Shown here in pieces: positions 6,672-45,931 of a stretch of 64,000 nucleotides of DNA. Each line of letters starts with the position of its first letter. The first letter of the stretch is position 1. A program made the position numbers and the translations under genes. Source of the stretch: a virus (taxonomy: Duplodnaviria; Heunggongvirae; Uroviricota; Caudoviricetes); IMG/VR virus record IMGVR_UViG_3300017971_000186. One strand, written 5' to 3'. The notes under the pieces are model-generated. The model worked only from the letters and a program-made list of their open reading frames with translations, was not told where the DNA came from and ran no database searches.

Positions 6672-7022
6672 ATGGCAATCAAAATAGAAAGTTTATCGGA
6701 ATTAAAACAGTGGAATAAAAACCCCACTAAGGAAAAGCCCATAGTCCTAGAATGGCTCATGGACTGGTTCTTCGAAGAATTACTTGATAGAAGTGAGATA
6801 GAAAAAGCAATCGAAGCTCGGGAAGTATTAATAGAGTTTACTATGATATGCGAGAAAATGGATCGAAAGAATGCCATAGAAAGAGTTGATACAAATTTCG
6901 ATTATTATAGTGGACGGGCTATCACCCGATGGAGACCCGAATGGTTGGAATTAAAGAAACAAATATATAAAAATGGTGGAAAAGTTTTTCAAAGTCACTG
7001 GCCAGCAATAACAGGCTATTAA
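6672..7022 (+). CDS. hypothetical protein
   Basis: 116-aa ORF. Confidence 0.4.
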   Translation: MAIKIESLSELKQWNKNPTKEKPIVLEWLMDWFFEELLDRSEIEKAIEAREVLIEFTMICEKMDRKNAIERVDTNFDYYSGRAITRWRPEWLELKKQIYKNGGKVFQSHWPAITGY

Positions 7023-7037
7023 AAGGGGAAAGATATT

Positions 7038-7283
7038 ATGGAGGAAATGACACCTGGAGAAATAATGGCAAGGATATTAAAAGGAGATAATACAGTTTCA
7101 AAAGAAAAATTTGAAGAAGTAACTGTAAACTTTTTTACTAAGCATGGAGTCCATTGTGAAATTACCAGTGATTTTAATAATCTTAAAAAGAAATCCCATA
7201 AACATGAATTTGAATCCGATGGAGGAAATTGTATTCATTGTGATATGACATGGGATGAAATAAACGAAGGAGAAGAGAAATAA
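7038..7283 (+). CDS. hypothetical protein with C-terminal Cys/His cluster
   Basis: AAAGGGGAAAG RBS. 'HCEIT...CIHCDM'. Confidence 0.4.
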   Translation: MEEMTPGEIMARILKGDNTVSKEKFEEVTVNFFTKHGVHCEITSDFNNLKKKSHKHEFESDGGNCIHCDMTWDEINEGEEK

Positions 7284-7506
7284 ATTGCAAACAGCAACTC
7301 GATTAAACAACAGGAATTATAATTACGAAAAAGTAAACAGAATAAGAAAAGAATTCGAAAGAAAAGTAAGAGGCGGTGACTTGATTCAGTATACTTATTG
7401 GCTTGAGAAAAGAATCTTAAAAGCTGAGGAGACATTACGAAAATACGAGCAAAAAGTAAAAAGTTGTTCAAATAAAATTCGAAGGGCTCTAATATAAGGA
7501 TGAGAA

Positions 7507-8028
7507 ATGGTTAAATATTCTGCAGAAATCAAAGATGGAAAATTATTAGGTATAGGATTAACTAATATGAATATCGAGAAATTAAAAAAGGGCATGCCTA
7601 TCCTAGTAAAACTTCCAGATCTCAAAATACTAACTGGTTGGAATGGTAGCATTGTCATTATGTACGGTAAAACTAAAAAAGCTATAAAAAGAGAAATAAA
7701 ACAAGCCTCTCTTGGAAAAATAAAATATATAGACAGAATAGGTGAAATATTAAAATTCTCTTTTACTATTAGAGGAGAAAAAACACTAGGAATAGGTATA
7801 AATGAATCCCATACAAATAAACTTATAGAATGGATACCATTTAAAATAGAATATCAAGATCTTAAAGATCTAACGGGCTGGGAAGGTAAAATCCTTCTTT
7901 CATGTGGTGACTCTGAAGAAGATATACGGGAGGAATTATCTGATTATATTGGCGAAAACACTAAAATAATCGATAAGAAAAAGGAATACATCGAAAAACA
8001 TTTGAAAGGTAAAGAAAATGGCGATTAA
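7507..8028 (+). CDS. hypothetical protein with internal ~65-aa tandem domain duplication
   Basis: The repeats 'LLGIGLTNMNIEKLKKGMPILVKLPDLKILTGWNGSIVIMYG' and 'TLGIGINESHTNKLIEWIPFKIEYQDLKDLTGWEGKILLSCG' are clearly related. Confidence 0.45.
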   Translation: MVKYSAEIKDGKLLGIGLTNMNIEKLKKGMPILVKLPDLKILTGWNGSIVIMYGKTKKAIKREIKQASLGKIKYIDRIGEILKFSFTIRGEKTLGIGINESHTNKLIEWIPFKIEYQDLKDLTGWEGKILLSCGDSEEDIREELSDYIGENTKIIDKKKEYIEKHLKGKENGD

Positions 8029-8230
8029 TGATGATGATATCACAGTTTGGAACTGTCCCGAAGCTGGCTGTAACGGAAAATTAATAAGACGAAAAAATAA
8101 GATTGATGGATCTCCTTTTCTCGGATGTACCAGATTTCCGAAATGCCGGTACACTCAAAAAGATGAATCAAATAGTGACGAGGAAGGATATCCTGATGGA
8201 CTGGCTGATGCTGCATCAGTATGGGAATAA
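8018..8230 (+). CDS. stand-alone topoisomerase-type C4 zinc-ribbon protein
   Basis: 'WNCPEAGCNGKLIRRKNKIDGSPFLGCTRFPKCRY' fits the zf-C4_Topoisom pattern (CPxCG...k.G.Fl.Cs.yP.C.y). Confidence 0.55.
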   Translation: MAINDDDITVWNCPEAGCNGKLIRRKNKIDGSPFLGCTRFPKCRYTQKDESNSDEEGYPDGLADAASVWE

Positions 8231-8414
8231 TTGGAGGTAGGATATGGTACGGACTGAATACCAATGCTCTCACATCAAAGAATGTAATAAAAAAAATTGT
8301 CCCCATTATCCGAGACACAGTAAAAAAGAAGATTGTAATGAAGAATGTGATGATTTTAAAGAAGCCAGATGTGTATTAAGGAAACCCAGGCGATCATATC
8401 ATAAAAGGTAATGT

Positions 8415-8615
8415 ATGAACAATTTTGAACTTAGTGATCAACAAAAAAAATTAAAAGAAGAACATGGTTCACCCGAAGAATTTGCAAAGGCATGTTACAA
8501 AGCAATACCTGAATTTATAAGTAGAAATGAAGCTGAAATAGCTATTCAAAAATATGATTATGAATGGATTGAAGCAGGAGCAAATAGGTGCTTAAGAATG
8601 CGAAAAAATTACTAG
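8415..8615 (+). CDS. hypothetical protein
   Basis: 66-aa ORF with a nearby RBS. Confidence 0.35.
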   Translation: MNNFELSDQQKKLKEEHGSPEEFAKACYKAIPEFISRNEAEIAIQKYDYEWIEAGANRCLRMRKNY

Positions 8616-8848
8616 AATGCATCCAGGTATATAGGAGCCATGGTGAAAATGAACTTTCTGAAGAACACTTTGAAATGGCTCAGAAAGCCCAAAAAGAGAT
8701 CGAAGACATATCTGAGGCTATACCAGTCATCCGAGCTATACTCGATGCTCACGGCCCTACAAGCCAGCCCTGTATGGCGCTAAGGATTGCTATAGAAAAA
8801 GCTGAGAACTGGTTGGAGAATTTTCAATTTTCTAATAAAGAGAAATAA
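8588..8848 (+). CDS. hypothetical protein
   Basis: 86-aa ORF. Confidence 0.35.
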   Translation: MLKNAKKLLECIQVYRSHGENELSEEHFEMAQKAQKEIEDISEAIPVIRAILDAHGPTSQPCMALRIAIEKAENWLENFQFSNKEK

Positions 8849-8852
8849 GTAT

Positions 8853-9260
8853 ATGAATGCTTTATATTATGAAGATCTTGTTGTAGGAATGTCTTGTGGT
8901 TGTGGCAATCCTCAATGCAATAAAAAAGCTGAATGGCTTCATGCCAGATGCCATATTAAAAGTGGTCTAATGGTCACATTTACTGAAAATATACTATTTA
9001 TTAATTGTAATACATGCAAAACTTCCGTTGTCAATTTATACTATGATTCAATAACAAATTATAAAAGAATAAATATATCTCATAAAAATGAAACGACTTT
9101 TTTATTCTCAGAATTTGGAGAATGCTCTACACCAGAATGTTCTATTAATATGGGTTTAGAGGTAAGATTCGATAATTATCAAATTTTACTCTATTGCCAT
9201 AAATGCAAGGAACTAGTAGCTACAGTAACTATAAGAAAAAGAGAATCTACAGGGGGTTAA
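8853..9260 (+). CDS. Cys-rich hypothetical protein (multiple CxxC)
   Basis: 'CGCGNPQC', 'CNTCK', 'CSTPEC' and 'CHKCK' suggest a Zn-binding protein. Confidence 0.4.
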   Translation: MNALYYEDLVVGMSCGCGNPQCNKKAEWLHARCHIKSGLMVTFTENILFINCNTCKTSVVNLYYDSITNYKRINISHKNETTFLFSEFGECSTPECSINMGLEVRFDNYQILLYCHKCKELVATVTIRKRESTGG

Positions 9261-9263
9261 TTT

Positions 9264-9509
9264 ATGAGTACAGTGATTATTGAACGTAGAGATTTAATTA
9301 AAAACACCGAAAAAAGAACTATTGGTAACACTCTCGATAACAAAGAAGACAGTAAACAAGAATCAAATCATCCAATGGTTTCAATTGATGATGGATATGA
9401 AAACACTTATCAAATTGATTATATCTGTTATAACAGAAAATGGTTTATGGTAGCACCAGAATCAGACCAGAAAAGACTGACCCGGGAATGGGATGAAAGA
9501 GAAATATAG
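9264..9509 (+). CDS. hypothetical protein
   Basis: GGGGG RBS. 81 aa. Confidence 0.35.
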   Translation: MSTVIIERRDLIKNTEKRTIGNTLDNKEDSKQESNHPMVSIDDGYENTYQIDYICYNRKWFMVAPESDQKRLTREWDEREI

Positions 9510-9856
9510 TGAGTAATATTATTGTTACATCTCATAAAGAATTTTTTCATATGCCTTATTACGGCAAACTTGAAACACAGATAGCCAAAGGAAATCGCAT
9601 ATGTCGAGGTTGCAATGGTACCATCCCTAGAAATAGTAAATGCTTATCCGAAACATTTTTATCTGACCAAATGATAAGAATGGGAAAAACAAGAACTGTA
9701 TATAAAAAATTATCCTATTGTCAGCACTGTGGAGAAAAAAGGATAGATTTTCTTCATAGTCTTATTGAAGAAAAATTCGATACTATCAAAAAAATCAAAA
9801 AAGAAATACGTATACCTAAAAAAGGAAGATACGCTATTTTATGTGGCACAACATAA
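9509..9856 (+). CDS. Cys-rich hypothetical protein
   Basis: 'CRGCNG...C' and 'CQHCGEK'. Confidence 0.4.
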   Translation: MSNIIVTSHKEFFHMPYYGKLETQIAKGNRICRGCNGTIPRNSKCLSETFLSDQMIRMGKTRTVYKKLSYCQHCGEKRIDFLHSLIEEKFDTIKKIKKEIRIPKKGRYAILCGTT

Positions 9857-10114
9857 ATAAAGATTTATTTATCTACATCAAACGGAACTGGAAAATATTT
9901 TTACATCTATTTTTCAGAACTAAACGGTTTGGTGTGAACAATAAATGGTGGTCAGACTTTAATTCTCCTTTTGGAATATCAATATGGAAACGATTGTGGT
10001 GGGCAATAACTGTTAAACCACTTATAAATAATTATCAAATGATTATCTTCAGAGCCAGAGGATGCTGGTTCTTAACAACTGAAGAATTAAACTTATTAGG
10101 ATGGTTAAATTATT

Positions 10115-23151: not shown

Positions 23152-23331
23152 TTTTTAATAATAATCCGTGTCTACTATGAAAGATTCATCATACCCATCC
23201 CCATAGGTTTTCAAACATCCATTGGAATCCATAAAAGTACCATTTACTGTATATGTAACATTACCATCAGTAGCACTCATTCCATCAAAATCACCATTTA
23301 AAGCATCACATTCTTTTTTATTATCTGTCAT
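23152..23331 (-). CDS. small hypothetical protein (59 aa)
   Basis: 'MTDNKKECDALNGDFDGMSATDGNV...'. ATGA overlap with the stop of the upstream gene. Below the track cutoff. Confidence 0.3.
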
Positions 23332-24158
23332 TTCTTTTCCTTTTCTGTTTTTGATACTGGAAATAATTGCAAATTCAAATGGAATACCCCATTGGTAGGT
23401 ACTTGATCCTCATCTATAATTTCAGCTATTTTTATCTGAAGATTTTTCATTTCAGCTTTTATTAAGGATAATGCTTTTATAGAAACTCTATTTGTAATTG
23501 TAGTAAGTTCTTGATTTTCAATCCCTTTAAAAAGGGCATTTTGACCCAATTCTAATACTTGTTTGTGAAATTTCTTAAAAGCTAATTCTCTTAATTCATC
23601 ACTAATAACAATAGATTTACAATGCACATATTTACCCGATGATCCCTTTTTTATAAGTCCCAATTCTTTTAATAAAGTTACCGCTTTCCGTGCCTGGACT
23701 TCGGTTATAGGAGGATCTACTGCTTTTGCTAAAATCTTATAATCATTTTTCCAATCATAAAATGCCAATAATTCATAAATAACAACATGATACCATTTAG
23801 AGAAGTAATCAAACTCATTTTTTAAAGTTTGAAATTTTTTTGACTTCTTACCAAGTGATTGTAATTGGTAGAATTGATATTCTTTTTCATCGATATTCTT
23901 AGAATTATTAAAATTAACCAGAGCTATGAAATATTTTTCCTCTCTTTTATTCAGTTCCATAGCTTTAGTAATCATATGGGTGCTACGTTGAGCTAGTTTT
24001 TTTTCTCCACTAATAACTTTGGGTATGAAAGTTTTAGTCCGGAAACCAGCCTTATCAGCAAAATACTGATATGAAAATTTCGGATTTAATTGTTTTTGCT
24101 CTTTATAGTAATCGGAAATAAAATCTTTATAGCTAGTATAGTCAAAGATACTGATCAT
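23328..24158 (-). CDS. TIGR02147-like putative DNA-binding/regulatory protein
   Basis: The N-terminus 'MISIFDYTSYKDFISDYYKEQKQLNPKFSYQYFADKAGF' resembles the family I recall as TIGR02147. Identification from memory only. Confidence 0.3.
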   Translation of the reverse strand: MISIFDYTSYKDFISDYYKEQKQLNPKFSYQYFADKAGFRTKTFIPKVISGEKKLAQRSTHMITKAMELNKREEKYFIALVNFNNSKNIDEKEYQFYQLQSLGKKSKKFQTLKNEFDYFSKWYHVVIYELLAFYDWKNDYKILAKAVDPPITEVQARKAVTLLKELGLIKKGSSGKYVHCKSIVISDELRELAFKKFHKQVLELGQNALFKGIENQELTTITNRVSIKALSLIKAEMKNLQIKIAEIIDEDQVPTNGVFHLNLQLFPVSKTEKEKK

Positions 24159-24361: not shown

Positions 24362-25207
24362 TTACTCAACTTTACTTTCATAGAATATACCTATATAAAT
24401 TTTCCACATATCCTTTGGACTCAGCGATTTTAACCGTTTCCAATTAAAAGTATCTTTAAATTCAGCTCCTTTACTTTCATACTTTTTATCATATCCCTTA
24501 TACCACTGGAAAGGAACCTCTTTACCATCAATATTTCGAACAAAAATAGTTCGAGGTGTCACCACAACAGTCCGTGTCTCAAGAGGAATATGGGTATTAA
24601 AACCCAAAGGACTCTTTTGGACAAAATATTCTATTGTATCTCTATCTACAATAGTAATAATAAGAGGATAAATCTCACGGTTTTTACTTATCGGTGCCGA
24701 TCCCTGTAAACTGTCTTCTAATGGTATGTGACGGATATCTCCAAACGGAGCTGGATAAAGCTTTCCATCCTGCCATAAATAAGAAGTTTCCTGGAACTTC
24801 TTATCCATTTGTCTGATAAATGTACCGTAAGCACCAAATTTTCGATAATATTCAAATAGTAATGGTTTTGTATAGAGCCAATAACTATAACCCTCACGCC
24901 ATATATCCTCACCCAATAATTTTAATTGAGCCCCTATACGTCTTCTATGAGAAGCCCGTCCTTTATAGAGATCAATAAGACAGTATTGACGAATAACCAA
25001 ATTGTTCGGAGCTGCACCTTCGGCCATTTTAACCCACATATTTTTCGTGAGCCTTTTCTTTTCCTCTTTAGTAAGAGACTTATTATCTAAATAATCATTA
25101 TACTTTTTTTCTTGAAAATTTGCGAGACTAGAACCATACTCAAAATTATAAGTACAACCAAAAAAAAGGAGAGTAATAACAAGGATTAAAATAACGAGGA
25201 AATTCAT
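24362..25207 (-). CDS. putative lipoprotein
   Basis: Signal peptide with lipobox-like 'LLFFGC'. Confidence 0.5.
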   Translation of the reverse strand: MNFLVILILVITLLFFGCTYNFEYGSSLANFQEKKYNDYLDNKSLTKEEKKRLTKNMWVKMAEGAAPNNLVIRQYCLIDLYKGRASHRRRIGAQLKLLGEDIWREGYSYWLYTKPLLFEYYRKFGAYGTFIRQMDKKFQETSYLWQDGKLYPAPFGDIRHIPLEDSLQGSAPISKNREIYPLIITIVDRDTIEYFVQKSPLGFNTHIPLETRTVVVTPRTIFVRNIDGKEVPFQWYKGYDKKYESKGAEFKDTFNWKRLKSLSPKDMWKIYIGIFYESKVE

Positions 25208-25306: not shown

Positions 25307-25702
25307 TCAAATAAATTTTATATTTCTGGTATGCCCAAAAATGGTACCTATTACCTGCACATCATAAGGGAGGCTGTTTTCAGAACAATTATAACAGATT
25401 ACATATTTTTGTTTGGGTAAATTTTCCAATGAATAAACCTTATGTGAATGCGATATGGAAAATAATCGAGCTTGTGATTCCAATTCTATCACTATAGGAG
25501 CATCATAAATTTTACTAGCCTGGATTACAGCGCTGTCTAAAGCATCCTGAGGTACGTTATCAGCAATATAGATACCATCATTGGTAATAGCATACTCAAT
25601 ATATTTCAGGGCCTGTCCTGCATACCTGGTAGAAGGAAAACGAAAAGCTTTAATTTTTTTTCTTTGGTTTTGAAAATGAACTGCAATTTCAAACCTATCC
25701 AT
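25307..25702 (-). CDS. leader-family protein (N-terminal 'MDRFEIAV')
   Basis: An internal Met of the track ORF gives 'MDRFEIAVHFQNQRKK', matching the family leader. Confidence 0.45.
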   Translation of the reverse strand: MDRFEIAVHFQNQRKKIKAFRFPSTRYAGQALKYIEYAITNDGIYIADNVPQDALDSAVIQASKIYDAPIVIELESQARLFSISHSHKVYSLENLPKQKYVICYNCSENSLPYDVQVIGTIFGHTRNIKFI

Positions 25703-26393
25703 AGCGACCTCCATCAACTTCCCCTTGTCTTTGAAAACCAGCTCGAATATCTCGATTAAGCGCCTGGGCTTCTCGGGTAGGAAGTGTTAAATGAAGAGTG
25801 GAACGGCCATTTTCATTTTCACTAATAGAATAAGCCAAAGATCTTAATGGAATAATTATTCGGTGCCCGTCAGGACCTGCTATCAATAGATGCCTAGAAG
25901 TAGGTCCACGAGAACTCATAGTATCCCCAGAATGAGTTATAGCTGAAGTACCCATATTTAACATAGTCCTTGCAACTTCCTCAGCTTGTACTGCCATTTC
26001 TCGATGTATTTGTTCTCCAAGAGCTGATTCTTCCTGTTCTGGAGAAGAGATATCAATACCAAGTTGACCTTGAGAAGAAATAGTAAGACCTGGCTGTCCT
26101 CGAACCCCTTGAGTACCAGTTACACCGAACATATGAGTAACCCCTGGAATTATCTGAGTACCTGTCTGACCTTGAAGCATTCTTGTTTGATTAGAATTAT
26201 CTGGAGAATCCCAATTACCAGGATTTCTCTCTATTTGTCTTTCTAGACCAATTGGAGGTATTTGAGTATTACTAGAACCATCTGACTTATTCTGAAAACG
26301 ATTTACTATATTACTTAATAAAGATCCTTTAACTTTATTTATAGTTTTTTCTACTGGTTTCTTTTTATTCAGTGCTATATCAAATCTATTCAT
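25695..26393 (-). CDS. leader-family protein (N-terminal 'MNRFDIALNKKKP'), Gly/Gln-rich collagen-like middle
   Basis: The track ORF begins at a GTG. The ATG three codons in gives the family leader. 'QGQTGTQ...GVRGQPG'. Confidence 0.5.
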   Translation of the reverse strand: MNRFDIALNKKKPVEKTINKVKGSLLSNIVNRFQNKSDGSSNTQIPPIGLERQIERNPGNWDSPDNSNQTRMLQGQTGTQIIPGVTHMFGVTGTQGVRGQPGLTISSQGQLGIDISSPEQEESALGEQIHREMAVQAEEVARTMLNMGTSAITHSGDTMSSRGPTSRHLLIAGPDGHRIIIPLRSLAYSISENENGRSTLHLTLPTREAQALNRDIRAGFQRQGEVDGGRYG

Positions 26394-26535
26394 TACCACA
26401 TAGCTCCTGTTATACCTGTGATGTTCCTAATTCCTCTATAATTCACAGTTTTTTGACCATCAACTCTATTATTAATTTTCTGATTTAACTCTTTCTTTTT
26501 CGGCTCTTTATTTAAAACTATACCATATCGATTCA
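26394..26535 (-). CDS. mini leader-family protein (46 aa, 'MNRYGIVLNKEPKKKE')
   Basis: Below the track cutoff. TAATG stop-start overlap with the next member. Confidence 0.35.
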
Positions 26536-26548
26536 TTTATTTTCTCGA

Positions 26549-27175
26549 TTAAAAGGGTAAATCATCTTCCCAGTTATTATCAGGATTAAATGACTCATTA
26601 GAATCGTCCGAATTCATATCAAATTCACTTGCATCAGCAGAATCATTAAATTCTCTATTTGACTCAAGATTTATAGTTGGAAGAGACGAATTACTTTCTA
26701 GATCTTTGTTATAACCATTTTGAACAAGAAGTTCTCTAGCTATTTCCCAATCACCCCTATTTACAATAACATGATTTTCATCAAGATTTAATCGAGATTG
26801 TGTATCTGGATGAATATGAAGTACACCACGACAACAAGATATATCTAATATATTTGATATAATACCAATAGGTATTATACTCTCATTAATAATTGGAACA
26901 ATTTCTCCAATTGAATTAACACCAACCGCATCTCCAACAGATACATTATATTCATTTTCAATCTCTACTTGAATAATACTAACTGCTGGTGCTCCTGCTA
27001 CATTCATATTTCTATTTATAGTCATTGCATCTTCAGGAGAAGATCTTACATTAATAGCGTCTTGAAATAAAGCTATCTCGATTCTTTTTACCTCTGATTC
27101 TTTCAAATCATCAGGTTCTTTTCCAGAAACTTTTTTCAGAGATCTCTTATTAAGTATTATGTCGAAACGCCCCAT
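26549..27175 (-). CDS. leader-family protein ('MGRFDIILNKRSLKK')
   Basis: AAGGT RBS. The C-terminal region 'HIHPDTQSRLNLDENHVIVNRGDWEIAREL' is paralogous to the next member. Confidence 0.55.
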   Translation of the reverse strand: MGRFDIILNKRSLKKVSGKEPDDLKESEVKRIEIALFQDAINVRSSPEDAMTINRNMNVAGAPAVSIIQVEIENEYNVSVGDAVGVNSIGEIVPIINESIIPIGIISNILDISCCRGVLHIHPDTQSRLNLDENHVIVNRGDWEIARELLVQNGYNKDLESNSSLPTINLESNREFNDSADASEFDMNSDDSNESFNPDNNWEDDLPF

Positions 27176-27183
27176 ACATTACC

Positions 27184-27594
27184 TTAAGAATTGCTGATAT
27201 TTAAACTTGAAAGATTATACCTACTTAAATCAGGAACAGTCCTTCCTCTATGTAAAGGAGGTGAAGAAGGTGGAGGAAGATTAGTATAAGTCCCATCAAT
27301 CCCCGTTAAAGTTTGCCTAGCTCTTTCCCAATCCCCTCGATCCACAATTACATGATCATTGCCAATATTTAATCGTTGTTGAAGTCCTGGATGCTCATGA
27401 AGAAAACCTCTTTTCGTATGCCCTCTTGAGATGCCCACTATTTCAATATTTTCATTTTGTTCTTTCTGAAGCTTCGCTATTAAAGCTACAACTGTTTCTG
27501 AATCAGCACTCCCTATATCAACCCCCATTATTAAATTAGGTTGATCACGTTTTATAGGCACTTTTTTCCCTTTTATAATATCATATCTACTCAT
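27184..27594 (-). CDS. leader-family protein ('MSRYDIIKGKKVPIKRD')
   Basis: ATGA overlap. The C-terminal region 'LHEHPGLQQRLNIGNDHVIVDRGDWERARQTL' is paralogous to the previous member. Confidence 0.55.
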   Translation of the reverse strand: MSRYDIIKGKKVPIKRDQPNLIMGVDIGSADSETVVALIAKLQKEQNENIEIVGISRGHTKRGFLHEHPGLQQRLNIGNDHVIVDRGDWERARQTLTGIDGTYTNLPPPSSPPLHRGRTVPDLSRYNLSSLNISNS

Positions 27595-27890
27595 ACTATG
27601 CTATTTCCAATGATAGGGACACCACCTTCTCTCACAAAACTTATATCAAATAGTTCATACATTGGATATTGAGAAGTCTGATCATTACCTGTTTGGTCAC
27701 TACCCCTAAATGGGATCGGTTCATCTCTCTTATATCTGGGTGGACCTATAGAAAAATTTGATAATAAAGATGATGGTCTACTTTTTAATTGAAAATCCTT
27801 CATACTTTCTTTAAAAGTTTCCAATGTCAATGGATCCATTTTATCAAACAAAGAAGGTTTTTTATTTAACAAGATATCATAACGATTCAT
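27591..27890 (-). CDS. leader-family protein ('MNRYDILLNKKPSLFDK')
   Basis: AGGGG RBS. 99 aa. Confidence 0.5.
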   Translation of the reverse strand: MNRYDILLNKKPSLFDKMDPLTLETFKESMKDFQLKSRPSSLLSNFSIGPPRYKRDEPIPFRGSDQTGNDQTSQYPMYELFDISFVREGGVPIIGNSIV

Positions 27891-27898
27891 TTATACCC

Positions 27899-28399
27899 CT
27901 ATTCAAAAATCAATTCAATCTTAACCTTTTTATTAACCAATTCTTCAGCCAAAAAAACATCCCATTTCAACCCTAAAATATTCATCACTCTACTTCCAAA
28001 AGATTCCCTGTATTTTAACAACTGACTCTCATCACATGTAGCATAGACAATTTTATCCGGTGGTAACATCTGAAATCTATCCATATAAAAATCAACATTA
28101 TCATAGAACAGATAGGGATGACCATACATATACCGTTCATTAGACATTGAACAAGTCTTTAAATTCTTCATCCTTTTTGGGTTGTTTTCAATCATCGCTC
28201 CTAACATATTCAAAATGAAAGATTCTTGTGATTTAATTATACATAGTAAACAAGGATAACCTAACTTTAAATAGATATTTAATATTCTTAATAAAGCTGT
28301 TGTCTTCCCACTATTCCTTGAACCTACAATCATCCTTCTACAACATGGAGGAGGCGCAGGAGGTGGATCTTTACCAAGTATAATATCATATCTATTCAC
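27899..28399 (-). CDS. leader-family protein with P-loop ('MNRYDIILGKDPPPAPPP...IVGSRNSGKTTALL')
   Basis: GTG start overlapping the XRE stop. Walker A GxxxxGKT. Confidence 0.55.
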   Translation of the reverse strand: MNRYDIILGKDPPPAPPPCCRRMIVGSRNSGKTTALLRILNIYLKLGYPCLLCIIKSQESFILNMLGAMIENNPKRMKNLKTCSMSNERYMYGHPYLFYDNVDFYMDRFQMLPPDKIVYATCDESQLLKYRESFGSRVMNILGLKWDVFLAEELVNKKVKIELIFE

Positions 28400-36721: not shown

Positions 36722-38311
36722 TTATGTACCCGGCTTCTTACCTTCGATATCCTTAAGAATATTACTAATTTCATTCTGAACCTGACCTATATCCAGGTCA
36801 TCAGAAGGACTAGCATACCGTGCTCTTAAACCGTCTTTTTTATTATCGTCCCAACCGACCCACTTATATAAGTAGTCCAGTTGTTCTGCCATTGTGGTTA
36901 AAAGATTCGTCTTTTTCTTTAATACTTTCTGAATAATACCAGTAGACAATTCAGTCTTATCATAAAAAGCATCATACATACTCTCACGTAAAGTTTGCTC
37001 TATCTCTCTACCAGATAAGTCCTTGCTGTCTACAGCTAATTTAGGAAGATCAAATTTTTTAGGATTCCTCTCTAACTTTTTAATAAGAATTTCAAAAATA
37101 TCCCGACGTTCATAAGACTGTGGAATATTTACAAAAAATGTTTCATCGAACCGATTGATCAATTCTGGTGGTAAAAATCTAATATCATTAGACGTAGCTA
37201 TTGTAAATACAGGTTTGGTACATTCCTGCATCCATATAAGAAATGTTCCAATAACCCTGGCAGTGACACCAGAATCAGAAAAAGTTGACGACTGGGAACC
37301 TGCGAAACCCTTCTCTATCTCATCGATCATTAAAATGCATGGGCTCATATTTTCTACAATATTTAAAACACGGTGCATGTTTGTTTCACTATCACCTACA
37401 CGGGAACTGAAAATTAGGCTAGGATCAAAACAAACTGCAGGAAGGCCCCATTCATTAGCTAAAGCCTTTAAAATCAGGGACTTACCACATCCAGGCAGAC
37501 CCACTAATAGGAGTCCTTTAAGTAAAGGTAAACCAAATTTCTGACCTTCAACAGTCCATCCCCCATAAGATTTTTGAATCCACTTTTTAAGATTCTGCAT
37601 GCCTCCTACATCATCAAAGGAAACATTGGTTTCTAATAAAGAGAGTAACTCTGTCTTAGCGATAGCATTCTTTTTAAACTCTCGAATGAAATCCAAATTA
37701 ATCGTTTTATAAATAGAATAACTTTGCAAATAGGACTGTTCTATTTCAAATAAAGTTAATCCTTTTAAATTATTGAGAATTTCTGCACTTGGTTTCTTAT
37801 CACCCTTTAATTCCAATTTTTTACTAACCTGATTAGAGTGGCTTTTTATTCTATCATCATCAGGTAAATCAAAGAAAACAACTTCACCTAGCCGTTCTAG
37901 ACCCATCGGGACACGAACAATTTGTGAAACAAAAACCAAATTCATAGTGAATTCTTCATCTAGCTGATATCGAGAAAGCAAATCCTTAATCATTCGCACA
38001 TTCTGTTTATCTTCTATATACATGTCACTATCAAGGAAGATATATTTTTCGTAATTATCTCTACCCTTAAAGTCTTTGGTTAATATTTCAGCAAGAACAT
38101 CTCGAAAATTACGTGCAGATTTTACCTGCACATTAAATTTATCTTTCAATAACTTTTTTAAAGGGACAACACCAGACAAAGTACGAGAATAAACAAACCA
38201 CTCATCTTTTTTATAATTCTCATGAAAGTATTTTAAAACTTCTATATCGGATTCAGCGATAACAAAAGACAATGGCCTATTTGCACCAATACATTGATCG
38301 AGACTAAGCAT
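36722..38311 (-). CDS. AAA-family ATPase
   Basis: Walker A 'GLPGCGKS', 'SRVGDSE' (cf. AAA 'SKWVGESE'), Walker B 'ILMIDEIEK', 'PPELINRFDETFFVNIP' sensor/Arg region. Confidence 0.75.
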   Translation of the reverse strand: MLSLDQCIGANRPLSFVIAESDIEVLKYFHENYKKDEWFVYSRTLSGVVPLKKLLKDKFNVQVKSARNFRDVLAEILTKDFKGRDNYEKYIFLDSDMYIEDKQNVRMIKDLLSRYQLDEEFTMNLVFVSQIVRVPMGLERLGEVVFFDLPDDDRIKSHSNQVSKKLELKGDKKPSAEILNNLKGLTLFEIEQSYLQSYSIYKTINLDFIREFKKNAIAKTELLSLLETNVSFDDVGGMQNLKKWIQKSYGGWTVEGQKFGLPLLKGLLLVGLPGCGKSLILKALANEWGLPAVCFDPSLIFSSRVGDSETNMHRVLNIVENMSPCILMIDEIEKGFAGSQSSTFSDSGVTARVIGTFLIWMQECTKPVFTIATSNDIRFLPPELINRFDETFFVNIPQSYERRDIFEILIKKLERNPKKFDLPKLAVDSKDLSGREIEQTLRESMYDAFYDKTELSTGIIQKVLKKKTNLLTTMAEQLDYLYKWVGWDDNKKDGLRARYASPSDDLDIGQVQNEISNILKDIEGKKPGT

Positions 38312-42142: not shown

Positions 42143-45100
42143 TCATATCCCAAAAAATCTTGCCAAAAGGGAAAAACTTTCAGGGTGTACTTTATACTCT
42201 GAAACTAATAAAGAGTTCCCTGATCTGTCACGGATTTTTAAAATTTTTTTATCTTTCTCTTCATATCGATTGCCCTCATCATTCAAAAAAACCAAAATAT
42301 CATTCAACCATCGTGAACTTATCGTACTCAATTCTCGCAGAGTATAAATCAAATATTGACCCGATATATCACCGCCGTTTAGAGTTTTTTTTTCTGATAT
42401 TTTACTACTATCTACAGTACCACTATCAACTTTCTCCAAAACCTCCTTATCTTTAGGTACATCATGTTGTTCAGACTTTTCTATATCTTGTATTTCAGAA
42501 GGAGTTTTTTCCTCTATAATCTGGTTATCTGGTACCTCATTTGAATCTTTCTCTGAATTTTCTTCTTCAATTTTATTACTTTCCACCGGAGGTTCATCAT
42601 TTTTATCTTTTGGCACATCATCTTTTATCTTCTGTAAAGATTCAAATTCCATTAAAGGCTCACTTAATTTATTCCTCAAATCAGGAAAATCCTTAAGAAA
42701 ATCACCTTTAACTCTCCAAGTATCACCATACTGTATATCAACTTCCAAAGGAATGGGCCATTTCAATTGACCCTGAATAATATCATTCAACTGCATGATC
42801 TTACAAATCTCTGGTACCAGTATCTGCAATTTTTCAGTTGTAATCTCAAAAACCAATTCATCATGCATGGTAATCAATATTTTTATATCATCATGCAGAT
42901 TATTTCTCGTGAGCCAGGAGTTCATCCGGGCCATGACAGCCTTCATAATATCCGCCGAAGTATTTTTACTTATAATTCCAGCAGAATCAAACCGATGTAA
43001 AGGAGATTTTACTGATAAAGTGTATGTAACTTCTTTTTTACTTAAAACTCTTTTCTTTTCTAATTTGGAATGATAATAAATTTCCGGTAGTTCACAATTA
43101 TAACTTTCTAATAATGACACTATTCCAGGTAAACTAACATTTTTACCCTTCCTAACTTTACATACATATGAGCGATCATTCCCATTTTTTACATAACAAT
43201 TCCCTAAAGAATTTAATATAGGCTCTCTTAAAAAATCAGGTAAAGGCATATTTTGTGTGTTACATTTTCTCTCTTCTTTTTTATAAGTTAAGTCCATTAA
43301 TTCCGCAAAAATTCGATAATTCATCCAATTAAATATGGATGAGCCATCACCACAATCATAAATAGTAGAGGGACATCCTAGGGTCCAAGCTAATAATTGA
43401 ATATCTCTCAATAGATCTTTATTAGGAGTATGGAAACCATATTTATTGGCCTCTTTCTTACATCCATCTGTATCAAAATAACCTCGTAAAAATGATTGTC
43501 TCATTTTTATAGGGGATTCCATAATTCGTTGAGGGATTCTCTTATCACGAGCATCATGAAAATGATAACCCATTTCTCCAAAAAGTTTTGTTAAAGTAAC
43601 GGAACAGATACTCGTTTTATAACAAATACCTTTACTACCTTTATTTAAAACAGGTTCCGAAATATTTAATCCGAGATCATTTAATTTTCTCTTAAGATCA
43701 GGAAATATTCTTCTTATCTTTTCTTCACCAAAATTTAATGTTATAACATATTTAGATGCCTTTTTATCAATGTATATTGAGCCATCTCCAATAACACATC
43801 CTAATAAATAGGCTATAAAATCCCACTCCTCTGCCGTACTCACTTTCAATTTCTGTGCATTCCATACATTTCCCTCAAAAATAATTTCCTCAGGATAACT
43901 CCCAAATTTTAATAATTGAGGGCGAGATATACATATATTAGTATCTTCTGTTAATTCATTAAATTTTTTAAATTCATATCTTTCATTATTTACTGTTAAT
44001 ACTTCATGCCGTGTATCACAATGAAGAATCATTCCATTTTTTAATTCAATTATCGCTAATTGAGCCTCTCCACGATCCAATACTTCAAAATCCTCCCATG
44101 AAACCCCAGTCCATATTTTTAAATTTTGGCCTGATTCCTTTAACTTTTTGATTTTTATAATAGATAAATAACCTTCTGTTGTTAAACAGCGCTCTTCTTG
44201 ACAAAGGCAACCTTGAATTTTTGTATTAACTGCACATCGATCTGCATGAGCAGCCAATCCCTTATCCCCACTATCATAGTACTTATTTAACGGTCTAGTA
44301 CGCCCAAAAATAGTTTTAACAAATTTCTCTTTTCTAGCTACCACGATCACCCGGTCAATCCATTTCTTCAGTTTAGGAACTCCTGCAAAAAATGTGGCTA
44401 GAATCTTTTTGGCCTCCGGTACAGTTATTTTAGCATTACCTGCAAGAGTAAATGGGCCTCCTAAATAAAGGGCCAAAAAATTAACTGTCTTTCCTATTTT
44501 CCTCTCACTTTTTAATACATCCTTAGGATCTTTTCCCGAGATAATAGCACCTGTAGCAGTATGGAAATCAATTCCTTTATGAATCGATTCAATCCAGGCA
44601 GTCTCATTCGAAATATTTGTAGCTACCCGCATCTCTTCATTTGCATAGTCAATCGCTACCATCGTTTTACCAGGACGAGCAATAAACGCCCTTCTCATAT
44701 CAATGTCAGGATTATCCTCACTAGGCATCTTTGGAATACTCTGGACATTAACTCCTGAAGACCCATCTATATGAATACCCTGACCACCAGGACTCGAAAA
44801 TCTTCCGGTATCAGTTCCAGTCTGTTTAAATTGAAGTTTTACAAAACCTTCTTCATCGTGGTTGTTCAAAAGATTATTAATATATGTCGATAAAACTTTT
44901 TCCAATCCACGGAAATTTATGATCTTCTTAACAATGGGGTAAAGGTCAGCTATTTTATTTAAGGTTTTACTATCAGTGCTGTATTGCCCAGATTTGGTTT
45001 TTGTTTTCTCTGGATATTTATATTTCAAATCATCGAATAGTATTTTACCTAATTTCTGTGAACTTCCCAAATTAAATTCATAACCGACCAATTGATGTAT

Positions 45101-45931
45101 CTCTTTTTTAATATCTTCTATACGGTTTTCAACTTTTGTTTTTAAGTCCTTGAGATATGGAACATCAATTTTTATTAGATTTGCTTCCATATCCATCATA
45201 ACAAATACAACCCGTTTCTCTAAGTTATATATCATCTGTTGACTCTTTATAATTTCCTGTTCCGTAAAAAAGATATATAAATCCATAGTACACATAGCAT
45301 CAGAGGCTCCATATGTATACCCCACATCAGGGGAGACAAGATCAAAATGACCTTCTTTGGCAACCTCATTAAATTTTAACATTGGTTGATCAAGTAATTC
45401 TGGAGAGAGATCCTTTAATTTATTGGCTTTTCTTCCTGAATCATGCAAATACGCCAGCAAAAGTGTATCTTCGAATTGATTATGATTATCAAGAACAATA
45501 CCGTAATTCTTTAAATAAGTTAAATCGAATTTAGCATTATGGTATATTGTAATACAATTATAACAAAGACGTTTTATCTCCTTTAAAACAGCCTCTTCTG
45601 GAAGATTAAATTCTATCCCTTCTCTATGATTAATAGGGATATAAATGGCCACTTTCGGATCATAACATAAAGCAAAACCTACTATTTTACCAATAGGAAC
45701 AATTTTACCATCTACTTTTTTTACCCTTGTATTAAGTCCTGTCGTTTCCAAATCAAGGGCACATCTTTTCGCTTCTATCGCCCTATCAATGTAATTTTCC
45801 ACTTCTTCCATGCTCTTGGCTAATTTAAACGTACGATCAGCCATCCATGGCATTTCGGCTATTCTGGTTTGAACAGTATCCTCCACAAATTCCATAAATC
45901 CTGTGTTTACAAATTGTTTTTTTGGTGCCAT
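42143..45931 (-). CDS. family A DNA polymerase (3'-5' exo plus pol), intein-containing
   Basis: Exo I 'ALDLETTGL', Exo III 'YGASDA', 'RFSSPGGQGIHI...VNVQSIP', motif A 'DYANEEMRV', motif B 'RKIGKTVNFLALYLG', 'AVNTKIQG|...|TSADIMKAV' and motif C 'MHDELVFE'. Confidence 0.9.
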   Translation of the reverse strand: MAPKKQFVNTGFMEFVEDTVQTRIAEMPWMADRTFKLAKSMEEVENYIDRAIEAKRCALDLETTGLNTRVKKVDGKIVPIGKIVGFALCYDPKVAIYIPINHREGIEFNLPEEAVLKEIKRLCYNCITIYHNAKFDLTYLKNYGIVLDNHNQFEDTLLLAYLHDSGRKANKLKDLSPELLDQPMLKFNEVAKEGHFDLVSPDVGYTYGASDAMCTMDLYIFFTEQEIIKSQQMIYNLEKRVVFVMMDMEANLIKIDVPYLKDLKTKVENRIEDIKKEIHQLVGYEFNLGSSQKLGKILFDDLKYKYPEKTKTKSGQYSTDSKTLNKIADLYPIVKKIINFRGLEKVLSTYINNLLNNHDEEGFVKLQFKQTGTDTGRFSSPGGQGIHIDGSSGVNVQSIPKMPSEDNPDIDMRRAFIARPGKTMVAIDYANEEMRVATNISNETAWIESIHKGIDFHTATGAIISGKDPKDVLKSERKIGKTVNFLALYLGGPFTLAGNAKITVPEAKKILATFFAGVPKLKKWIDRVIVVARKEKFVKTIFGRTRPLNKYYDSGDKGLAAHADRCAVNTKIQGCLCQEERCLTTEGYLSIIKIKKLKESGQNLKIWTGVSWEDFEVLDRGEAQLAIIELKNGMILHCDTRHEVLTVNNERYEFKKFNELTEDTNICISRPQLLKFGSYPEEIIFEGNVWNAQKLKVSTAEEWDFIAYLLGCVIGDGSIYIDKKASKYVITLNFGEEKIRRIFPDLKRKLNDLGLNISEPVLNKGSKGICYKTSICSVTLTKLFGEMGYHFHDARDKRIPQRIMESPIKMRQSFLRGYFDTDGCKKEANKYGFHTPNKDLLRDIQLLAWTLGCPSTIYDCGDGSSIFNWMNYRIFAELMDLTYKKEERKCNTQNMPLPDFLREPILNSLGNCYVKNGNDRSYVCKVRKGKNVSLPGIVSLLESYNCELPEIYYHSKLEKKRVLSKKEVTYTLSVKSPLHRFDSAGIISKNTSADIMKAVMARMNSWLTRNNLHDDIKILITMHDELVFEITTEKLQILVPEICKIMQLNDIIQGQLKWPIPLEVDIQYGDTWRVKGDFLKDFPDLRNKLSEPLMEFESLQKIKDDVPKDKNDEPPVESNKIEEENSEKDSNEVPDNQIIEEKTPSEIQDIEKSEQHDVPKDKEVLEKVDSGTVDSSKISEKKTLNGGDISGQYLIYTLRELSTISSRWLNDILVFLNDEGNRYEEKDKKILKIRDRSGNSLLVSEYKVHPESFSLLARFFGI
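42962..44209 (-). mobile_element. intein (416 aa) with LAGLIDADG homing endonuclease inserted in the polA 'IQG/T(A/S)ADI' site
   Basis: The insert starts with Cys right after '...NTKIQG', ends '...IISKN', and the +1 residue is Thr of 'TSADIMK'. LAGLIDADG blocks 'YLLGCVIGDGS' and 'LRGYFDTDGC'. Removal restores the canonical PolA motif. Confidence 0.75.

Follow-up and report, generated by a model that had tools for sequence, protein, structure and literature searches.

The gp32 protein of phages T4 and RB69 consists of a short N-terminal peptide (the B domain), a linker, a zinc-OB core and an acidic C-terminal tail. In T4 the peptide attaches to the core of the next gp32 along the ssDNA, and this makes binding cooperative (PMC12893549). 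The tip of the bacterial SSB C-terminus, DDD[IL]PF (PMC3000357, PMC8509808), is likewise a short terminal motif, and it links SSB to many genome-maintenance proteins, for which the C-terminus is a recruitment hub (PMC3000357). PIP-box and clamp-binding motifs are short terminal motifs that send many replication proteins to one hub, while the tags read by AAA+ unfoldases (ssrA, N- and C-terminal ClpX motifs) combine a terminal motif with an unstructured linker and can stand at either terminus. The capsid-targeting sequence (CTS) of T-even phages is found on late, packaged proteins and is removed by the prohead protease, which cuts behind a conserved Glu. This CTS is all that the T-even internal proteins have in common, i.e. 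∼10 N-terminal residues on variable small proteins from a fast-evolving locus (PMC3012670). Here we describe a phage peptide carried by a predicted gp32-type SSB and by an array of mostly unrelated proteins. Its most likely role is that of a docking tag through which a range of proteins reach the replication machinery, and not that of a capsid or vault packaging signal.

The window, a stretch of 64,000 nucleotides from a member of the Caudoviricetes (IMG/VR record IMGVR_UViG_3300017971_000186), contains seven tightly packed minus-strand ORFs from position 28399 to 25307, confirmed at the coordinates given in the sequence-only reading. An independent gene caller run on the source contig returned the same products of 166, 99, 136, 208, 47, 232 and 131 aa (m1 to m7). 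The array shares its strand with the replication genes, within one long run of packed minus-strand genes, and its genes are translationally coupled, with stops overlapping starts. The products m1 to m4 begin with MNRYDIILGK (from a GTG start), MNRYDILLNKK, MSRYDIIKGKK and MGRFDIILNKR, and m5 to m7 with MNRYGIVLNKE, MNRFDIALNKKK and MDRFEIAV, a start pattern of M-[NDSG]-R-[YF]-x-I-[ILAV]-[LVK]-x-K. An eighth leader-bearing gene, m8, lies outside the array (36719-36015) and begins with MDRYQIAVGKKP. The consensus reads M-[ND]-R-[YF]-[DEQ]-I-[LAI]-L-[GN]-K-K-P; behind it comes a flexible Pro/Lys/Glu linker, and only the 10-12 N-terminal residues are shared. Under a chance model based on the amino-acid composition of the window, p(M-x-R-[YF]-x-I) is 3.6e-4; eight gene starts with this motif were observed, against 0.04 expected per 100 genes. 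Inside the window proteins the motif is not enriched (9 seen, 6.5 expected). A sequence-only reading had described seven consecutive minus-strand genes with near-identical N-termini, and ORFs, gene calls and chance estimate agree with it. Scans of the window for sigma-70 promoters and terminators showed no excess over shuffled sequence, and Rfam and tRNA scans returned nothing.

The constraint on the leader acts at the level of the peptide. The invariant Arg3 is encoded by AGA (three times), CGT (three times), CGA and AGG across the eight members, and codons also vary at Ile6 (ATT, ATC, ATA) and Leu8 (CTT, TTA, CTG). The sequences 5' of the start codons show no conservation. Because the Arg3 codons differ and nothing is conserved upstream, selection is on the leader peptide and not on the DNA, as the sequence-only reading had proposed. 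Explanations at the DNA or RNA level, or through translation start, are rejected on the codon variation together with C-terminal copies of the motif, described below. Between orthologues the leaders are 50-90% identical (70-90% for intact genes), compared to 22-47% for the bodies (67% for that of m7), which bears out the proposal of a short, portable N-terminal tag on mostly unrelated bodies.

The first gene, m1 (27899..28399; 166 aa), encodes the leader, a Pro-rich linker and a small P-loop NTPase with Walker A motif GSRNSGKTT, the P-loop domain of the sequence-only reading, and has a weak match to AAA_14 (E 0.0015). Its GTG start overlaps the end of an HTH_3 (Cro/CI-type) regulator gene (28392..28769, minus strand), which also heads the array in two related contigs, L088 and L100. 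Orthologues of m1 that have the leader are present in L088, where the bodies are 35% identical, in L095, where the gene comes straight after that for the SSB, and in L092, P0274, P0275 and P0276. Since an hhalign comparison of the m1-type and SSB profiles gave only a spurious 22-column match, these bodies are taken as unrelated. The body of m2 (27591..27890; 99 aa; leader MNRYDILLNKKP) has no detectable relatives in Pfam, PHROGs or the array itself, and its positional counterparts, of 63 aa in L088 and of 95 aa in L089, have different bodies. In m3 (27184..27594; 136 aa) MSRYDIIKGKK is joined to a HPGLQQRL...VDRGDWERAR domain; this C-terminal domain is common to m3 and m4 (38% identity over 98 aa, E 1e-12). 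The m3 orthologue in L089 is a pseudogene with a CTG start and an in-frame TAG. The m4 product (26549..27175; 208 aa) combines the leader MGRFDIILNKR and the m3-related body with an acidic tail ending in EDDLPF, which is read directly in the translation, as is the short G-x-y run of m6; the acidic and collagen-like regions reported earlier are thus present. Counterparts in L088 and L100 belong to the m4 type by a common HEHPxLQ...VDRRDWE domain, and the complete L088 protein ends in DDGLPF. L095_d, which has only leader and tail in common with m4, ends in EDDFPF. The DD[LF]PF tail of the m4 type appears from its sequence to resemble the tip of bacterial SSB.

The remaining members are m5 (26393..26536; 47 aa), with leader MNRYGIVLNKEP and a 35-residue tail, m6 (25695..26393; 232 aa) and m7 (25307..25702; 131 aa), with the divergent leader MDRFEIAVHFQNQRKK. 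Behind its leader, m6 has a Lys-rich linker, a Gly/Gln-rich G-x-y stretch and a conserved C-terminal domain, and its orthologues are found in L089 (37% body identity) and L095 (L095_e; 32%, 199 aa, E 1.6e-12). m5 is probably a fragment of an m6-type gene: it resembles the N-terminal part of m6-type proteins, and 36 aa align at 42% identity with the one in L095. The m7 orthologue in L089 is 68% identical and has a TTG start at the same residue. The bodies had been called unrelated; this holds for most of them, but not for m3 and m4 with their common domain, nor for m5, which resembles the m6 type. Pfam, PHROGs and NCBIfam scans of the leader-bearing members yielded nothing significant beyond the weak P-loop match.

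The eighth carrier, m8 (36015..36719, minus strand; 234 aa), is composed of leader MDRYQIAVGKKPDPKKEEK, a linker, an OB/Zn core and a C-terminal tail, and sits in a PolA-primase-DnaB module. Its AF2 model (pLDDT 90.3) has RB69 and T4 gp32 as top PDB matches and predicts the gp32 fold, an OB-fold core with an inserted zinc-binding subdomain. Residues H67, C75, C85 and C86 show conservation of 90% or more among 58 homologues, and by spacing, not by superposition, we take them to be the equivalents of gp32 H64, C77, C87 and C90. Searches with the single sequence or a profile gave no family match in Pfam, PHROG, NCBIfam or PDB, and the relationship to gp32, as modelled, is visible only at the fold level. 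In the same model residues 1-10 have a pLDDT of 90 and the linker one of 66-79, which suggests that the leader is packed on the core. The divergent gp32-like SSB family to which m8 belongs counts 166 cluster representatives and goes unrecognised by sequence-family libraries. The motif is at the N-terminus in 51 of 118 representatives, three of which have an extra C-terminal copy, and only near the C-terminus in another three of the 118. It is thus an N-terminal peptide and family trait of the gp32-type SSB that can occupy either terminus, and a tethered docking peptide would behave in this way. For SSB homologues ending in R-R-I-x-W, L102 and L103 gave no clear case of neighbours with the same motif. 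L104 is a short contig of an SSB with the C-terminal motif only.

Related genomes were seen in part, most contigs being short. Each of the six contigs with a motif-bearing SSB (the window, L088, L095, L092, L097 and L099) also holds at least one other motif gene, here called satellites. L095 has five of them directly after the SSB gene, and in the satellite of L099, a 190-aa protein, it is the C-terminus that carries the motif. SSB family and satellites have an identical motif and co-occur in several lineages. Conserved satellite types (the m1 P-loop type, m6, and the m4 type with its DD[LF]PF tail) span lineages whose SSBs are only 31-38% identical. SSB and satellite leaders are most similar within a genome, with 3 of 120 permutations reaching the observed value; this covariation is weak and driven by two short contigs, and at position 6 L095 has His in the SSB against Ile in all five satellites. 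Neither blastn of the array against GenBank phages nor IMG/VR scans for close relatives with m8 and m4 found a match. Three IMG/VR matches to a degenerate leader DNA pattern were chance hits to Ser codons and not ORF starts.

The tag is read as a docking signal for the replication machinery because the same peptide heads the phage's own gp32-like SSB, whose N-terminus appears to be the original home of the motif. This link points to the replication and recombination machinery, which was absent from the options of the sequence-only reading. We give about an even chance to the peptide being a portable short linear motif, similar to the N-terminal cooperativity peptide of gp32, that docks satellites onto the SSB; here we infer that the SSB core is the receptor and recruitment the effect. 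The motif would serve self-association in the phage SSB, as the gp32 peptide does, and the seven array proteins and their counterparts in related phages would dock through the copied peptide at the same acceptor site. This would bring the satellites to ssDNA coated by the SSB, for instance where an SSB cluster has a free end. Their payloads may be factors of replication, recombination or takeover, including the small P-loop NTPase of m1. The m4 product could act as an adaptor whose DD[LF]PF tail imitates that of bacterial SSB, and could either draw the partners of host SSB towards its phage counterpart or titrate them away. In this arrangement, unlike in bacteria, where SSB has the motif and its partners the pocket, the partners copy the peptide of the SSB.

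Several points count against docking on the SSB. In sequence, the motif shows no similarity to the T4 LAST motif (KRKST); satellites bound at the cooperativity site would be in competition with contacts between SSB molecules; and a conserved Cdc48-like AAA ATPase, encoded next to m8, could receive a terminal tag just as naturally. A further difference from gp32 is that the motif can also be placed at the C-terminus. Somewhat more tentatively, a huge-phage lineage may have turned the self-association peptide of its SSB into an address tag on at least seven unrelated proteins, loading them onto SSB-ssDNA filaments, with an adaptor that mimics the host SSB tail. We know of no description of a gp32 peptide shared with at least seven non-SSB proteins, and such a recruitment code for a viral replisome would not have been described before.

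The AAA ATPase (36722..38311, minus strand) lies immediately upstream of m8 and resembles the D2 domain of Cdc48/p97 (PF00004, 3.9e-24; Cdc48/p97 in PDB, 1.6e-41; CDC48 in NCBIfam, 4.6e-25). In phages, tblastn found distant matches only, at ≤35% identity. It is a candidate alternative receptor: peptide and linker could form an engagement tag by which the ATPase, as a segregase, remodels, extracts or unfolds the SSB and satellites as a set of clients. We consider this unlikely, although the ATPase is of the classic-clade unfoldase type, its gene overlaps the SSB gene in a pair kept in the window, L092/L093 and L095/L096 (AAA 63-65% identical), and the motif is always terminal and followed by a disordered linker, like unfoldase tags. 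However, the short contigs L097 and L099 have leader-bearing SSBs and satellites with no AAA gene adjoining in the DNA covered. Moreover, the leader is predicted to be ordered on the SSB instead of hanging free, and gp32 gives direct precedent for a self-association peptide at the N-terminus of an SSB. As a difference from the known unfoldase tags, no protease partner was found.

It is rather more doubtful that the motif docks on another replisome hub, such as a sliding clamp, DnaB-type helicase, primase or PolA, with the SSB as one client among others. The replication-module context would fit, and clamp and SSB-tail hubs do work via terminal short motifs (PMC3000357). Yet the window yielded no clamp, the consensus differs from known clamp-binding and PIP motifs, and the SSB is the only constant companion in every contig seen.

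A capsid-targeting sequence of the kind that T4 internal proteins have, by which the products would enter the prohead and be injected with the DNA, is very improbable in spite of a strong formal resemblance: a variable array, ∼10 shared N-terminal residues, and gene turnover including a pseudogene. The best-conserved carrier is the SSB in the replication module, the array follows the replication genes in strand and packing, and the motif also occurs at C-termini. No prohead-protease site (L/I-x-E) ends the leader, with no Glu at a fixed position and K/P-rich linkers of variable length, and the capsid-targeting analogy of the sequence-only reading thereby loses its conserved cleavage motif. Its two other analogies fared no better. 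Pfam and PHROGs gave no match to the encapsulin family among ∼40 larger window proteins, including every ORF of at least 90 aa between 24.4 and 38.3 kb, so that cargo loading into an encapsulin has no encapsulin gene among them, and to our knowledge the motif differs from the known encapsulin loading peptides. Polymorphic toxins have a long conserved N-terminal domain, a C-terminal toxin and an adjacent immunity gene; here the shared part is just 10-12 residues, and no toxin or immunity family was matched among the leader-bearing members in Pfam or PHROGs, which speaks against a trafficking domain of polymorphic effectors.

The window also encodes a protein homologous to major vault protein (MVP; 30776..33217, minus strand; MVP_shoulder 1.4e-23, Vault_3 3e-11), which in the window and close relatives lies between SSB and array. 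This position would suit a leader that loads cargo into a vault-like shell, a reading to which we assign hardly any probability. MVP relatives are very widespread (>5490 proteins), and among 80 loci fetched from metagenomes, out of 288 tblastn-confirmed relatives, 79 (≤52% MVP identity) lack both the motif and the SSB; the one locus with the motif is from a close relative (68% MVP identity). Conversely, motif-carrying phages occur without MVP in the flanks covered, and L095, with its SSB and five satellites, has no MVP within 10 kb downstream of the SSB, its place in the window. The motif does not track MVP across these loci, co-occurrence of the two having been suggested as a check, and there is no evidence that MVP is part of the leader system; it is context only. 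Known vault cargo has a ∼160-aa domain (INT), unlike the short leader, and Pfam detected no INT domain in the leader-bearing members.

That the leader has no interaction function and is a remnant of duplicated genes or of an optimised translation start is scarcely credible. In favour of this, m3/m4 and m5/m6 are true paralogue pairs and the genes are coupled. Against it, conservation of the leader between orthologues far exceeds that of the bodies, the leader persists across lineages with SSBs only about 30% identical, and codons vary at its invariant residues. The idea is largely refuted by copies of the peptide close to the C-terminus in SSB homologues and at the C-terminus of one satellite.

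If the peptide docks on the SSB, it would give a simple rule for assigning unknown huge-phage proteins to the replication and recombination machinery. It would also show how a network of SSB interactions can be built in the reverse direction to that of bacteria, with partners that copy the SSB's own peptide. Proteins of the m4 type, which have the phage tag at their N-terminus and a tail like that of host SSB at their C-terminus, are candidate hijackers or titrators of host genome-maintenance enzymes, and such an adaptor could, if this is true, capture the SSB-interacting repair and replication enzymes of the host. The 12-residue tag could in addition become a tool for sending proteins to ssDNA.

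The window (G+C ~32%) derives from a huge phage and carries, on its minus strand at 28399-25307, seven consecutive open reading frames (m1 to m7; 166, 99, 136, 208, 47, 232 and 131 aa), which overlap or are separated by gaps of at most 13 nt. m1 starts with GTG, within an overlap with the stop codon of the HTH_3 regulator gene before it. The same seven products were called by an independent gene caller on the 469-kb source contig (ENA ERZ27256783, k141_627434), and all begin with the leader M-x-R-[YF]-[DGE]-I-[ILAV]-[LVK], confirming the tandem family described in the sequence-only reading. A six-frame scan extended the family by an eighth member outside the array, m8 (36719-36015, minus strand; MDRYQIAVGKKPDPKKEEK, 234 aa), with an AAA ATPase gene directly upstream. 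Counting m8, eight leader-type starts were seen against 0.036 expected per 100 genes from window composition; within protein interiors it is no commoner than background (9 occurrences against 6.5 expected). The invariant Arg is encoded by AGA, CGT, CGA and AGG, Ile6 and Leu8 by three codons each, and DNA 5′ of the array start codons is unalignable, similarity starting at the ATG. The constraint therefore acts on the peptide, not on DNA, as had been proposed. The C-terminal bodies had been described as unrelated, and in all-against-all BLASTP similarity is indeed confined to residues 1-14 in most member pairs, but one C-terminal domain is common to m3 and m4 (38% identity over 98 aa, E 1e-12). 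m5 (47 aa) is similar to the beginning of m6-type proteins. Just past the array, where strand blocks switch, a DUF4423 protein (23328-24158, minus strand) adjoins a predicted lipoprotein-like gene (24362-25207).

The m8 family was unrecognised by any sequence library searched, and HMMER, run in full against 1.84 billion representatives, returned 166 relatives at E 1e-3 or better. An AF2 model of m8, built from a 58-sequence alignment (pLDDT 90.3, pTM 0.76), was compared with the PDB using Foldseek; the top matches were the RB69 gp32 core (E 3.2e-4), T4 gp32 (1gpc) and 8gme_B, all at probability 1.0. BFVD matches include T4-like phage proteins annotated as single-stranded-DNA-binding (SSBs). 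H67, C75, C85 and C86 are nearly invariant in the family, with a spacing that we take to be similar to that of the gp32 zinc ligands. Given the structure matches and these near-invariant His and Cys residues, m8 is, by its predicted fold, a divergent gp32-type SSB.

Motif position was scored in 118 full-length SSB-family representatives. The motif is N-terminal in 51 (e.g. MNRYDHALNK, MDRYRIALNKK, MNRYEILLNKKP and MDRFQILKG), three of which have a second copy near the C-terminus. Another three carry it near the C-terminus only (P0176, TSRYKIALQQ; P0224, VTRYSIALKKIKGG, at the extreme end; P0225, TGRYEMARRKIR), and the other 64 lack it and begin directly at the FGFD core. The leader is therefore a terminal module, separable and independent of position. 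The m8 model gives residues 1-10 a pLDDT of 90 and a short helix at 3-7 (linker, 66-79), and we read the leader as a peptide predicted to pack on the core. A leaderless subset (P0157, P0161, P0166, P0173, P0180, P0185, P0193, P0203, P0212, P0217, P0219 and P0221) ends in the basic-hydrophobic R-[RK]-[RK]-I-x-W, which may be another peptide for self-association; in contigs L102 and L103 no neighbouring gene with this motif was found.

The leader was found neither in GenBank phages by blastn nor in IMG/VR by a degenerate DNA pattern. The major vault protein (MVP) homologue of the window (33217-30776, minus strand; 813 aa, MVP_shoulder 1.4e-23) has relatives at 42-45% identity in phage records LR756500 (462 kb) and LR756501/3 (735 kb), and a preprint mentions phage MVPs as of unknown function (10.1101/2023.11.10.566534). 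The family is very large: with E 1e-100 as the limit it has >5490 proteins, and contigs of 100-590 kb carry many of them. Co-occurrence of the leader with MVP, suggested earlier as a check, was not borne out: among 80 MVP loci fetched from 288 tblastn-confirmed metagenome relatives, the motif stood at an ORF start in only the closest (L008, 68% MVP identity). An MVP-linked reading is not supported, as MVP is very common and the leader does not track it.

A protein search gave three closer MVP relatives (79%, 75% and 68% identity); the array was compared in the contigs of the latter two, L088 and L089, leaving out the 79% relative (2.7-kb contig). In its SSB part L088 has an m8 orthologue (MNRYEIARGEVP) and a truncated m8 paralogue. 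Its HTH gene is followed by an orthologue of m1, a new member of 63 aa and one of m3/m4 type that ends DDGLPF. The L088 SSB gene is tandemly duplicated (2-364 and 357-1049), and the homologous protein P0128 (MNRYQIARGEVP) resembles a full-length version of the upstream copy, which argues that both paralogues kept the leader. L089, without HTH or m1, has a 95-aa member, an m3 pseudogene and orthologues of m6 and m7, the last with a TTG start at the residue matching the window m7 start. The pseudogene (7766-8086) has CTG where it should start, and exactly at the Gln position of m3 it has TAG in frame; from the sequence, TAG read as Gln through stop-codon recoding is a possible alternative. Leader identity between orthologues is 5-9 of 10 residues (7-9 in intact genes) against 22-47% in the bodies (67% in m7), so the leader stays constant while the array turns over. 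DUF5662 follows MVP in the window, L088 and L089. Between SSB and MVP, the window has two adjacent minus-strand ORFs matching phrog_24725, of unknown function (34366-34935 and 34966-35625; 189 and 219 aa); L088 also has two copies and L089 one.

Leader-bearing non-SSB proteins, here called satellites, accompany the SSB, not MVP. The 60-kb contig L095 (identity to the window 68% in PolA, 63-65% in the AAA ATPase, 38% in the SSB) has the SSB leader MNRYDHALNK and five satellites: a P-loop protein of m1 type that comes directly after the SSB, one protein that ends EWVNMDTVLEDL, another of 122 aa, a third of 209 aa with the end EDDFPF, and an orthologue of m6. MVP was not found in the 10 kb downstream of this SSB. 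In L092 an m1-type gene has the same 12 residues as the SSB (MNRYEILLNKKP), in L097 the gene adjoining the SSB (MDRFQILKG) begins MTRFQILKG, and in L099 (SSB leader MGRYSIILKK) a 190-aa protein has the C-terminal end KSRYDIIKGA. A profile search added leader-bearing m1-type proteins P0274, P0275 and P0276, and L100 again has the order HTH, m1, small member, m4-type. No clear leader-bearing member was seen on a 13-kb contig that carries a leaderless SSB. SSB and satellite leaders matched better within than across genomes (3 of 120 permutations reached the observed value), a hint of within-genome matching driven by L092 and L097. Replication genes on the array's strand comprise a primase, two helicases, one of them of DnaB type, and PolA (42143-45931, minus strand), which has an intein with a LAGLIDADG domain. 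In L095 the intein lies in the orthologous AAA ATPase (6850-10014), not in PolA.

Through its N-terminal domain, T4 gp32 binds to the core of the neighbouring molecule on ssDNA, which makes binding cooperative, and its C-terminal domain serves partner recruitment (PMC12893549); m8 has this three-part layout in common. In the simplest reading, the leader would be the self-association peptide of the m8 SSB family, and satellites copying it would dock at the same acceptor site and be recruited to SSB-coated ssDNA. We infer that the SSB is the receptor, and give roughly even chances to a short linear motif common to the gp32-like SSB and its satellite set, most likely for SSB docking. The m4-type satellites have an acidic stretch and then a DD[LF]PF end resembling the bacterial SSB tip, which recruits at least 12 genome-maintenance proteins (PMC3000357, PMC8509808); by analogy, they may be adaptors or decoys for host SSB partners.

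Chief among rival receptors is the upstream AAA ATPase, of Cdc48/p97 D2 type; in three lineages its gene and that of the SSB overlap. Unfoldases of this kind also engage a terminal tag plus flexible linker. However, L097 and L099 have SSB and satellite with no adjacent AAA gene in the available sequence, and the leader is predicted to be ordered in m8. A shared targeting tag, proposed earlier, survives as a portable tag, but the compartment was wrong. The closest formal analogue is the capsid targeting sequence (CTS), which is all that diverse T4 internal proteins share (PMC3012670). Capsid targeting itself is disfavoured by the lack of a cleavage motif past the leader, the SSB as chief carrier, the replication-gene neighbourhood and the C-terminal copies. 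The encapsulin and polymorphic-toxin/effector analogies are not supported: a scan of ~40 of the window's larger ORFs with family libraries gave no encapsulin gene, and a toxin/effector architecture is absent.

Other tagged arrays were also seen. Seven genes beside MVP in LR756500.1 (26354-31664; identical in L030) start MKY[IL]xxYEEF, and six of the seven proteins end ADDFG[FLM][FLI]DN or a close variant, with differing middles (LRR repeats versus others). Their N-terminus, MKYIKEYEEFILE followed by A, is similar to the T4 CTS, MKTYQEFIAE followed by A. Small-gene arrays in the MVP-bearing phages L052 (377-3333), L055 (236-22070) and L050 (5145-8942), with N-terminus MK[IYH][IK][KR]xFE and C-terminus K[FY]N[ILM], are, judged by their termini, further putative double-ended tag families. 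In L038 (13900-17119) and L052 (13272-14631), small genes (62-156 aa) stand in tandem arrays of 6-11; all start MFKVGDKVVCI and are probably whole-length paralogues.

With docking on the SSB as the preferred reading, leader sharing would belong with known principles, namely SSB-centred recruitment by terminal motifs and self-association through the gp32 N-domain.
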